A stretch of DNA of 64,000 bases from Escherichia coli. Its GTDB lineage: Bacteria; Pseudomonadota; Gammaproteobacteria; Enterobacterales; Enterobacteriaceae. Shown here in pieces: positions 12,001 to 15,000 of this stretch; the first letter of the stretch is position 1; every line of letters starts with the position of its first letter. Location: assembly GCF_041248615.1 (NCBI RefSeq), contig NZ_CP158425.1; one strand, given 5' to 3'. The position numbers are program-made.

Positions 12001-15000
12001 GGGAATATGATTCCATCAAACCATCCTTATTTTGAAGTCATCTCAAAAGCATGTATAAATGGAGTGCGTGACTTTGTTCGTCAAAACCCGTGGGTAGTCT
12101 GACGGTCAACTATAAAGCATAATATAATTAGTAATAACAAGGAACAGACATGAATGAAAACTCAGTAATCTTAATAAGTTTATTTTGGTTTTTTTTGGGA
12201 TCGAGTGTTGTAGCTGGTTTTATGGATGCATCATTATATTGCTGGATTTTTGCAGCCATAAGCGCATTGTTTCTTCTTTCGGTGATACAAACACCAAAGG
12301 AGTTAACGGTATCTATTAGTCATATGACAAGCAAAACGCTGATCTCAAAGACAGATGATGGATACACATTTAGCATTTCACCTTACGGAGACGGGTACCG
12401 CTTATCAGTCTCGCCTGAAAATCGTCACAATGGTACCCAAAGCTTTGACGGCTGGTTCCCACGTTTTTTTTCCGAACCACAGTATGCCAAATCATCTTTA
12501 ACTAAATTTCTCGGTGAGTCCTTAGTATGGGAAGAAGATTCAAGTAATGCTCTATGAGATTACTTATTATAAATTTTTCTATTAATCTCCATGGAGTGAT
12601 ATATGAATTTGGCCTATTTTTTATTTTTGTCTATAACTGTTATGCTTACGAGCTTTATTATTAAATCACTTGTCGTATTGGTAAAGTTCAAATTACTTCG
12701 TGATGAACGTCTCGAATATACCAGCAATAAAAATATTGATGAGATGTACGATTTAATGAATGCGAAGGAAGAAATCCTCATAAGGCATCATAAGCAGATG
12801 TTGGCATTGCATCTTTCACTATTAATATTCGTTCTATTTATTGCTTACATTTACTAAAAATAATTTTATTCAACATTTCAACAAAGGGTTTTCAATGGAA
12901 AGCTTCGAAACTGAACAAATGATTCAATATGCTTTCTACATAAATATCGTAATAACGACTGGTTTGGCATGGTTTTGCTTGCGGTCAGGATTGCATTACA
13001 ATTTTTTCAGAAAAGCAGAGAGTGCCAGAACAAAAGGGCTGAGTAGTACCTCTACTGAACACGGTCCAGCAATAGTGAGACTAAAGAAGCTACAAGCATT
13101 AGTAGATTTTATTAGTAACTGTGCTTTTCTAATCCTTTCAATTGGCACAGCTTATATTTTGTATGTTTGGAGCCACAGTTAACTCATACGAGGTAACTTC
13201 GGCAGGTAACAACTTCTAATGCAGGACTTTAATAACTCTAAGGGATTCTACATGAAAAAAGACGATCTAATTACGCGTTGTAAATTACTTAAAGGCGAAC
13301 GCGATGAGTCTATCTTTACCATATTAATTGGGATAGTAGTAAAGCTGGGGCTGGTAGGCCTGGCATTCTATCTGTTGCTTGGTTCCACGATTGATTGGTC
13401 AAGCTGGAAAACTTATGCCGCCATGTTGATCTTGGGAGCATTTCTCTAAAATCTTGAACCTTTTTTCACTCATTACAAGCCATGACCTAGTGCGTAGATC
13501 ATACGATCTTTAAACCTTATGTCATTGATTTATAAGTACATATAACAAAGATTATGTTAAATACTGTATGTATGTACAGCATCAACAGTTGCCCCCCTCA
13601 TATTGAGGTAATTGCTACATTCATACCACTATTCTTCTTATAGTATCGACATCCTGAATTATTGCACCCTACTGCTTTGTCTTTAGCTGTTCCGAATTAA
13701 AATTCATTGCTCAATTTGGATCACATGACGATCAGCGTATTCCTTTGCTTTATCAAAGTTAAGTTTTTAAAACATAAGATATGTAATGACAAATTCTCAA
13801 TCTGATTTTCCTTTGAACGATCAAAATTTTCAGGCAGATTTGCTGAAAATCAAAAAGGTTTTCGCCGACCTTATAACGCAGGCATCAGATGGTAAGATAC
13901 CCATAAGGTCTTCTCATGTACACGGCTTACACCATTTCGAGGAGCTCTACATCCGGGCAAGAGCAGGCATGTGTTCGGTCCTGGGATATCCGGTCATGGT
14001 TGTTTCAACTATCTCAGTTAAAGAGCCCGGCACAGGCATTTTTAGAGCGCTTCTTGCAGAATTGAAATGTATTGCAGATGAACAAAATTACATTTTGAAA
14101 ATTGAAAATGTACTGCCTCCCCTATTCCGCAAATACCTTATTCAAGAAGGTTTTGTTTTCCCAGGTGAACCTTGGATGTGTGGTTCCGGCTATTGGTTTA
14201 AGAACCCACAAGTACTTCATGAAAATATTGAGTTATTATCTGTTTAAGTCGATCTAACAATTTCACTGGAGCTAACATGTCCCCGGAATTGGTATCAGAC
14301 ATTGCAAGAGTGGCGCATGAAAAGCTACTTTCAATTTTAACGGAGTGCGGCATAGAGAAGACGGCAGGCACTTGCCTTTTTGCAAGCTATCTTGTGTGTT
14401 ATTTAGCAAAAACTAAAGGTCTAGATGCTGTTGTCCGTGGGGGTAACGGTGCAGATGATGGCGGTATATTTATAGAGTGTGGTGGCTTTGGCCATTATTG
14501 GTGTGAGTTGAATTTCGAAGAAGTGCAATATTATATTGACATCACTTCCGAACAGTTTGGGTTTCATCCATACATAGTGAAACTCGCCAACGATATAACA
14601 GGATGGCCTCGATATATTCCTGGTGATCAGGAAACGGTCGATAGTCATTTAGAACAATTATTACGCGACGGCTATACAGAATAGGCTGCGTATACCCTAT
14701 CGCAGCCTTTCAGGCTCTTAACCCTTGTGACCTGTTAACGGAACCACTCAGGATGACGCTGCCGATCAACTTTGATAACCTGCGAATTAAATTCAACGAC
14801 ATCCGCTGGAGTAAGCATTAATTCATCAGGATTTACAATAAATGGTCTTAAAACCACTTCGCCACCGTCTTCTTTTGCACCGTAGATATTAATAAGAAAG
14901 TGCAGTCGTTGATTTCCTTCAGCATTGCGTTGCCATTCTCTAAAAGTCAAAGTTTGTTTAATATAGTTTGTTAAAAGAAATGCGAATTCAGATTCTTCCG

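Follow-up and report, generated by a model that had tools for sequence, protein, structure and literature searches.

Small membrane-protein genes at the distal end of a conserved nuclease gene string in IncHI2 plasmids: a putative accessory region linked to conjugation

What is encoded by a run of four small open reading frames (ORFs) in the most AT-rich part of an Escherichia coli plasmid sequence? The four, designated ORF1 to ORF4, occupy positions 12150-13449 of the 64,000-nucleotide stretch of DNA analyzed here (hereafter the window; RefSeq assembly GCF_041248615.1, contig NZ_CP158425.1), and an interpretation made without database searches (the sequence-only reading) had described them as four small membrane-protein genes. 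This description held for three of the four, as ORF2, ORF3, and ORF4 are real genes, while ORF1, as alignment with related plasmids shows, is a chimera made by a deletion rather than a native gene. All four are located on the plus strand, as had been stated; of the lengths originally given (135, 84, 96, and 66 aa), the last two had counted the stop codons and are corrected here to 95 and 65 aa. The 5-kb region around the small ORFs is 100% identical to many conjugative plasmids of ~200-370 kb (e.g., pSTM6-275), typed as IncHI2A, MOBH, and MPF_F and found in Salmonella, E. coli, Klebsiella, and Enterobacter; the region thus belongs to the IncHI2 plasmid backbone. The explanation that we favor, with modest confidence, is that it represents the variable distal end of a conserved IncH nuclease gene string, and that its small genes are accessory and linked to conjugation.

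Evidence that ORF2, ORF3, and ORF4 are genes comes from diverged homologues and from selection. An exhaustive HMMER search of 1.84 billion representative proteins, with the sequences concatenated into one query, yielded no more than 38 matches, which include, for each small ORF, diverged homologues of the same length. The ORF2 homologue (P0093; 87 aa, 39% identity) shares the motif RHHKQMLxLHxSLL and is encoded after an SNase gene and a ~310-aa gene in a related locus, L013. ORF3 has homologues in locus L016 (P0075; 55% identity) and in two IncHI1-type plasmids, L004 and L005 (a 99-aa protein; 33-35% identity), with 21 invariant residues; a word-indexed protein search with ORF3 found near-identical copies only. 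The two ORF4 homologues (P0090 and P0092; 60% identity) share the motif GLVALAxYLLxGxxxDWSxWKTYA. At informative divergence, the ratios of nonsynonymous to synonymous substitution (dN/dS; Nei-Gojobori method) were 0.30 for ORF2, 0.07-0.25 for ORF3, and 0.15-0.66 for ORF4, i.e., selection on the small genes is similar to that on the neighboring nuclease gene (0.17-0.28; 0.18-0.38 for the ~300-aa gene that follows the nuclease gene). Because they combine same-length diverged homologues with dN/dS below 1, these ORFs are more than chance reading frames, and conservation in related plasmids, on which the sequence-only reading had made its proposal depend, was found for ORF2-ORF4.

The two main IncHI2 lineages differ little over most of this region, with nucleotide identities of 100% for ORF2, 98.6% for ORF3, and 99.6% for the nuclease gene; ORF4, at 92.4% (window 13252-13449 versus 4183-4380 of L002, i.e., plasmid pEC-IMP), is a patch of local divergence or recombination between the lineages. 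Apparent ORF3 variants with 82-86% identity were discarded, as they originated from an error-ridden assembly with homopolymer frameshifts. This IncHI2-like assembly (L012; GCA_017571205.1, contig JAGETR010000021.1) seeds spurious protein variants into the protein database.

The proteins encoded by ORF2, ORF3, and ORF4 are predicted to be small inner-membrane proteins of three unrelated and very narrow families. Hydrophobic segments with Kyte-Doolittle values >1.6 were found in all four ORFs (two in ORF1, two in ORF2, one strong and one weaker in ORF3, and one long segment in ORF4; 19-residue means of 1.7-2.5), in agreement with the one or two helices per ORF noted previously, and each ATG is preceded, at a distance of 6-7 nt, by a purine run resembling a Shine-Dalgarno sequence. 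ORF2 and ORF3 both terminate inside their second helix, which no K, R, D, or E residue follows. According to the positive-inside rule, these two proteins would have both termini outside and the basic loop inside, and the N-terminus of ORF4, a basic tail followed by one helix, the conserved DWSxWKTYA motif, and a short hydrophobic C-terminal end, would be inside. ORF2, ORF3, and a 97-aa protein of IncHI1-type plasmids have a common layout (helix, basic loop of ~35-40 residues, helix, end of protein); paralogy among the three was considered and rejected, as the hhalign probability was <1%. Start sites are subject to some ambiguity: ORF3 has an alternative TTG start at 12841 that would yield 113 aa, and the Prokaryotic Genome Annotation Pipeline (PGAP) shortens ORF2 to 71 aa in pEC-IMP and calls neither ORF2 nor ORF3 in pSTM6-275. 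Alignment with the homologue supports 84 aa as the probable correct form of ORF2. Automatic annotation more generally often misses ORF2 or ORF3, or shortens ORF2.

The composition of ORF1 became clear from alignment of the window with pEC-IMP (97.9% identical) and pN13-01290_23 (L003; ~95% identical), both of which carry 530 bp more than the window, with the deletion junction at 12317/12318. The intact allele encodes OrfA (104 aa, three hydrophobic segments), OrfB (85 aa, also three), and OrfC (77 aa, soluble); the deletion removed the part of orfA that encodes the third helix and the tail, the whole of orfB, and the spacer ahead of orfC. ORF1 therefore consists of OrfA residues 1-56, with two helices, followed by Ser-His (derived from the orfC leader) and the complete OrfC, in frame. 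Presence or absence of orfB was used to count the deletion allele; a megablast search with the junction joins both flanks across the insertion. Among the approximately 1,095-1,116 plasmid records with the region, 458, mostly from Enterobacter, contain orfB; with absence of orfB as a proxy, the fusion allele is present in ~58% of IncHI2-type records, mostly from E. coli and Salmonella. The deletion, which we interpret as a lineage-specific accident behind both the ORF1 fusion and the loss of OrfB, can serve as a simple lineage marker that separates these plasmids from those with intact orfA-orfB.

OrfA and OrfB constitute a conserved adjacent pair that was lost from the window lineage. Their genes lie side by side in pEC-IMP and L016 and also in L020, a locus of an unrelated plasmid type with an OrfA homologue of 46% identity. 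The database search yielded an OrfA homologue (P0096; 46% identity) and three OrfB homologues (P0080, P0091, and P0101; 45%, 53%, and 34% identity), and dN/dS was 0.15 for orfA and 0.31-0.36 for orfB. Charge distribution predicts that the N-terminus of OrfA is outside and the C-terminus, in the intact protein, inside; the second helix would thus be exited toward the periplasm, and fusion would place OrfC, normally cytoplasmic, outside the membrane, unless orfC is translated separately. In L020 (3313-9806), the orfA- and orfB-like genes are located within a long one-directional array that also includes genes for topoisomerase III, H-NS, an SprT-like protein, other small membrane proteins, and an SNase nuclease; Hha is encoded in L021.

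More than half of the records carry the fusion allele, in which orfA and orfB are destroyed; this raises the possibility that the small genes are decaying cargo, i.e., once-functional genes that drift toward loss in silenced AT-rich DNA and have no current role in IncHI2 plasmids. Consistent with decay, orfA is also disrupted in pN13-01290_23, by a 1-bp deletion in a T-run, dN/dS of ORF3 within IncHI2 reaches 0.65-0.96, and PGAP often skips ORF2 or ORF3. However, wherever ORF2-ORF4 occur in the IncHI2-type loci of good quality that were examined, they are intact; ORF2 and ORF3 are 100% and 97% identical between the two major lineages, the deeper comparisons show clear purifying selection, and an ORF3 indel, in pN13-01290_23, is 12 bp long and in frame. 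We consider decay very unlikely as an explanation.

OrfC, the part of ORF1 that is retained complete, is a genuine small soluble protein and, of all array members, the one found most widely. A profile search identified a family of at least 35 members (33-68% identity, ten invariant residues) on plasmids of Enterobacterales, Pantoea, and Vibrio, and dN/dS of orfC was 0.12-0.18 at deeper divergence. A confident AlphaFold (AF2) model with a mean per-residue confidence (pLDDT) of 80.3 has a beta-beta-beta-loop-beta-alpha topology, for which no convincing fold match was found. The UniRef name of one family member is "WGR domain-containing protein", and Foldseek gave a weak match to a phage WGR protein (E = 0.11); like the OrfC model, the WGR domain is a small beta-rich domain with a helix at the end, but none of the 35 family members matched the Pfam WGR model (PF05406) at E ≤ 1. 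The most distant orfC homologue (33% identity) is found on a plasmid of Vibrio sp. SCSIO 43155 (L007 3525-5895), directly upstream of AAA ATPase and DUF4435 genes, a combination that also occurs in the PARIS defense system.

The setting of the small genes is the same in every IncH-type locus examined (IncHI2, IncHI1-type, and related): a methyltransferase gene on the minus strand is followed by the divergently oriented SNase-type nuclease gene, the gene for the ~300-aa protein, and then the small genes (Table 1). The nuclease, whose R27 orthologue is R0153, has an N-terminal, signal-like hydrophobic segment and an alternative GTG start at 10649. Content and order of the small genes are variable. 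With A, B, and C for orfA-orfC and 2, 3, and 4 for ORF2-ORF4, the order is A-B-C-2-3-4 in pEC-IMP (followed by a 91-aa ORF), A'::C-2-3-4 in the window, A-B-3-C-4 in L016, and 2-C in L013. Among the IncHI1-type loci, L004 has C-3 followed by the 97-aa two-helix ORF, L005 has a PLD gene and then C-3, and L009 has A-4 followed by the 91-aa ORF and lacks B, C, 2, and 3; plasmid R27 (L011) has lost the small ORFs. In pN13-01290_23, a gene for a lipoprotein-like 73-aa protein and a DUF2726 gene take the place of ORF4 (L003 4161-4997, equivalent to 13219-13449 of the window); homology to the window breaks off at most a few bases from the start codon of ORF4, and the 5' leader is common to both. Because R27 lacks the small ORFs, L009 lacks four of the genes, and pN13-01290_23 carries a frameshifted orfA and a replaced ORF4, the small genes are dispensable for plasmid maintenance and transfer.

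Table 1. Features of the small-gene region and associated loci in the window
Feature	Coordinates	Strand	Description
Plasmid H-NS paralogue	1738-2139	-	Pfam Histone_HNS_N (E = 2.5e-26) and Histone_HNS (E = 3.6e-16)
SNase-type thermonuclease	10688-11203	+	Pfam SNase (E = 3.8e-24); PGAP thermonuclease family protein; heads the string
Conserved ~300-aa protein	11206-12102	+	Always between the nuclease gene and the small ORFs
Promoter-like site	12099-12128	+	CTGACG-18-TATAAT, 10/12; just upstream of ORF1; possible internal promoter
ORF1	12150-12557	+	135 aa; PGAP WP_001572392.1, hypothetical
orfA remnant	12150-12317	+	First 56 of 104 codons
orfC	12324-12557	+	77 aa, soluble; motif PxxRxNGTQxxDGWFPR
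ORF2	12603-12857	+	84 aa; two-helix hairpin, basic central loop; spans the window GC minimum
ORF3	12895-13182	+	95 aa from ATG; two-helix hairpin, acidic N-tail, basic loop
ORF4	13252-13449	+	65 aa from the ATG used by PGAP
AT-rich spacer	13450-13785	none	Closes the tightly spaced string; homology between IncHI2 lineages ends here

The variable gene order arose by recombination. Synonymous divergence (dS) between the window and L016 is mosaic, at 0.06 for orfC, 0.08 for ORF4, 0.10 for the nuclease gene, 0.54 for the ~300-aa gene, and 1.8 for ORF3; in a comparison with pEC-IMP, dS was 1.2 for orfA and 0.55 for orfB. In L016, orfC is preceded by 109 nt that duplicate the orfB 3' end in degenerate form, a recombination scar. 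A repeat search of the window, pEC-IMP, and L016 for integron-like cassette repeats found only short repeats at chance level. From the mosaic dS, the orfB scar, and the lack of cassette repeats, we conclude that the mosaic was made by ordinary segmental recombination rather than by a site-specific cassette system.

Downstream of the array, relatives carry several defense-type genes (TIR and macro domain, DUF2726, DUF3800, PLD protein, and DUF6904), and the site looks like a defense-gene hotspot, i.e., a conserved position behind the nuclease genes at which IncH plasmids swap small envelope and defense genes. In two IncHI1-type loci, a TIR gene followed by a macro-domain gene is located just after the array (L004 4784-6231 and L009 4310-5766), a pair that resembles type II Thoeris. 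The window contains, on the plus strand, a gene pair with no Pfam match (13786-14247, 153 aa, and 14277-14684, 135 aa); by eye, the same pair is found beside an orfC homologue of a Citrobacter plasmid (L006 4425-4853 and 4867-5292), and in the 135-aa protein, a Cys...His...Asp-like pattern (GTCLFAS, GHYWCE, and YYIDITSEQF) suggests a papain- or transglutaminase-like enzyme.

These neighborhoods invite the explanation that the array itself is a defense or exclusion module, in which the periplasmic nuclease, small membrane proteins, and OrfC would block or sense foreign DNA (phage or rival plasmids), or in which the small proteins would be orphan immunity proteins against membrane-targeting toxins. 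Such a role would be in line with the TIR and macro-domain genes of L004 and L009, the DUF2726 gene of L003, the DUF3800 and PLD genes of IncHI1-type plasmids, and the AAA ATPase and DUF4435 genes after the Vibrio orfC homologue, as well as with the rapid turnover of gene content and order, the mosaic dS between window and L016, the narrowness of the families, and the association of the array with a secreted nuclease in two plasmid types. A defense-hotspot neighborhood is no evidence of function, however; the array proteins have no PADLOC, Pfam, or PHROGs match (for PADLOC defense models, none of ten proteins at E ≤ 1), the window has neither a toxin nor a bacteriocin gene next to them, and dN/dS shows no sign of positive selection. 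We consider a defense or exclusion role unlikely.

The reading that we favor, an accessory array at the end of the nuclease gene string, leads to the question of whether the string is expressed as a unit and with the transfer genes. From the nuclease gene to ORF4, the intergenic gaps measure 2, 47, 45, 37, and 69 nt, and no terminator-like site was called between the genes of the string, the single call (13350-13364) being inside ORF4. Because gaps before the small genes are short (37-69 nt) and lack terminator-like sites, the arrangement suggests that these genes are co-transcribed with the nuclease genes. Promoter-like sites were no more common in the region than in shuffled sequence, i.e., at chance expectation, and are therefore weak evidence.

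Published microarray data on R27 (Gibert et al. 2020; PMC7366339, Tables S3 and S4) cover the R27 counterparts of the proximal string genes, which we mapped as R0153 (nuclease, labeled "partition protein"), R0152 (~300 aa), and R0151 (PLD protein). In wild-type R27, signals for R0153, R0152, and R0151 were 692, 270, and 189 at 25 °C and 242, 140, and 401 at 37 °C; in the htdA mutant at 25 °C, they rose to 10801, 4389, and 2548 (PMC7366339), corresponding to 15.6-, 16.3-, and 13.5-fold changes relative to wild type at the same temperature. The similar fold changes and the declining signal along R0153-R0152-R0151 fit a single transcript. These genes are derepressed alongside the transfer genes in the htdA mutant, and R0153 was singled out by the authors as induced in all conditions that promote conjugation (PMC7366339). 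Taken together, the R27 data point to control of the nuclease gene string by the conjugation regulator HtdA; that this control carries over to the IncHI2 small ORFs is an inference by analogy. In R27 (L011 23639-27568), the cytosine methylase gene R0154 and the divergent R0153-R0151 were all 11- to 16-fold up in the htdA mutant at 25 °C, and this joint derepression suggests that the intergenic region between them may be a bidirectional promoter under conjugation regulators.

A second level of control may involve H-NS. As stated in the sequence-only reading, the small ORFs are in the most AT-rich part of the window; the lowest GC content of any 300-nt stretch in the 64 kb is 28.3% (12565-12864), and mean GC content is 36.2% for the four-ORF region, 43.1% for positions 1-16000, and 50.3% for the whole window. 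Low GC content extends into the spacer that follows ORF4 (31.3% for 13509-13808), inside which no terminator-like site was called. The H-NS-like protein noted nearby was confirmed, with both Pfam H-NS domains. Judging from base composition, H-NS or its plasmid paralogue is a plausible additional brake on these low-GC genes; no H-NS chromatin immunoprecipitation sequencing or hns-mutant data for IncHI2 plasmids were found in the literature.

A mechanism along these lines would have the genes for the secreted SNase-type nuclease, the ~300-aa protein, and the small proteins transcribed as one string that HtdA keeps low and that rises with the transfer genes, with H-NS or the plasmid paralogue as a second brake; once the transfer program switches on, the small proteins would serve larger envelope proteins as accessory subunits or modulators. 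Since ORF2-ORF4 have no enzymatic domain, accessory subunits or modulators appear most likely, rather than toxins or holins. Several points weigh against this explanation. The R27 data concern upstream genes only, in a plasmid without the small ORFs, and most of the expressed R27 genes (139 of 181; PMC7366339) are up in the htdA mutant, so that co-regulation is not specific. No expression or translation data were found on the small ORFs from any IncHI2 plasmid; supplements of the pMDRHI2 RNA-seq paper contain no per-gene values that could be mapped to them, and the pSTM6-275 paper is without transcript data. The promoter-like site upstream of ORF1 could make the small ORFs a separate unit, dN/dS of ORF3 and ORF4 within IncHI2 is 0.6-0.96 (from few substitutions), topology was derived from charge distribution only, and no physical link connects the small proteins to the transfer machinery or the nuclease.

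Small inner-membrane accessory or regulatory proteins are well known from enterobacteria (e.g., MgrB, AcrZ, SafA, and KdpF). The proteins described here are similar to these in size (65-95 aa), in having one or two helices and no enzymatic domain, in their predicted location in the inner membrane, and in their narrow range; they differ in that they have no sequence similarity to them, are plasmid-borne, and are encoded in an array linked to a nuclease string. Small accessory membrane proteins in AT-rich plasmid DNA are a familiar kind, and the region is an ordinary accessory region. We also give a slim chance to a more specific scheme, in which the SNase, the ~300-aa protein, OrfC, and interchangeable membrane proteins would form an unrecognized IncH envelope module that is switched on with conjugation and controls DNA crossing the envelope; foreign DNA would be degraded or excluded in the periplasm and the plasmid's own transfer spared, with the fast-turnover membrane hairpins as specificity or anchoring subunits.

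The functions proposed in the sequence-only reading, i.e., entry exclusion, holin, or toxin, found no backing in family searches. When the small ORFs and their neighbors were scanned against Pfam, NCBIfam, PADLOC, and PHROGs, SNase was the only match above threshold; no toxin, holin, exclusion, or immunity family was matched. For the type I toxin families Hok/Gef, Ldr, TisB, Ibs, and ShoB, Pfam and NCBIfam searches at E ≤ 1 gave sub-threshold DUF matches only, and an Rfam search at E ≤ 1 over 10300-15900 for antisense or type I toxin RNAs gave only a chance snoRNA match, although a novel antisense RNA could have escaped such a search. As for entry exclusion, the locus lies between the methyltransferase/nuclease block and accessory genes rather than in a transfer operon, and Pfam gave no match to an exclusion family (EexA/EexB or the TraS/TrbK types); according to work on R27, the Z operon, part of the transfer region, encodes the IncHI entry-exclusion system EexA/EexB (PMC7366339). 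The small proteins would resemble EexA/EexB as plasmid-encoded envelope proteins with expression tied to the transfer regulon, but EexA/EexB are larger and encoded in the transfer region, and R27 lacks the small ORFs of the array at this position.

Membrane toxins or holin-like proteins, silenced by H-NS and killing or permeabilizing the cell upon expression, would account for small hydrophobic proteins on a mobile element in AT-rich DNA and for their frequent deletion, frameshift, or replacement, as if expression were costly. Against this stand the lack of any Hok/Gef, Ldr, TisB, or holin match (the latter in Pfam and PHROGs) and of an antisense RNA family; lengths of 65-95 aa, which exceed those of typical type I toxins; two-helix hairpins in ORF2 and ORF3 without the charged C-tail of holins; the absence of an adjoining lysin or antitoxin gene; the organization as a short-gap string rather than an autonomous toxin-antitoxin unit; and purifying selection on par with that on housekeeping neighbors. 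This explanation is, in our view, highly improbable.

The nuclease at the head of the string invites comparison with the par region of RP4, whose ParB is an SNase-like nuclease; this accounts for the label "partition protein" of R0153. Both are SNase-family nucleases on conjugative plasmids, the IncH enzyme being encoded by the first gene of its string. The IncH locus differs from that of RP4 in containing no resolvase or partition partner genes, in the signal-like N-terminus of its nuclease, and in the genes for the ~300-aa protein and the small membrane proteins that come after.

In Salmonella, E. coli, and Enterobacter, IncHI2 plasmids are major carriers of mcr-1, extended-spectrum beta-lactamase genes, and genes for heavy-metal resistance; annotation is lacking for most of the genes in their backbone. 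The present analysis separates real genes (ORF2, ORF3, ORF4, and OrfC) from the deletion artefact ORF1. The families as such are already deposited, as "hypothetical protein", in more than 1000 plasmid records. If the array should modulate conjugation or DNA entry, it would be of practical interest. On one side, the string is flanked by a divergent, minus-strand block of a DUF1173 gene, a small ORF, and the DNA cytosine methyltransferase gene; on the other, by more hypothetical genes and then, from ~16000, by resistance modules, the onset of which coincides with an abrupt rise in GC content, to ~65% near 16000 and 58-69% over 16001-24000. In pSTM6-275, these modules include tet(A), a class 1 integron, and dfrA12.

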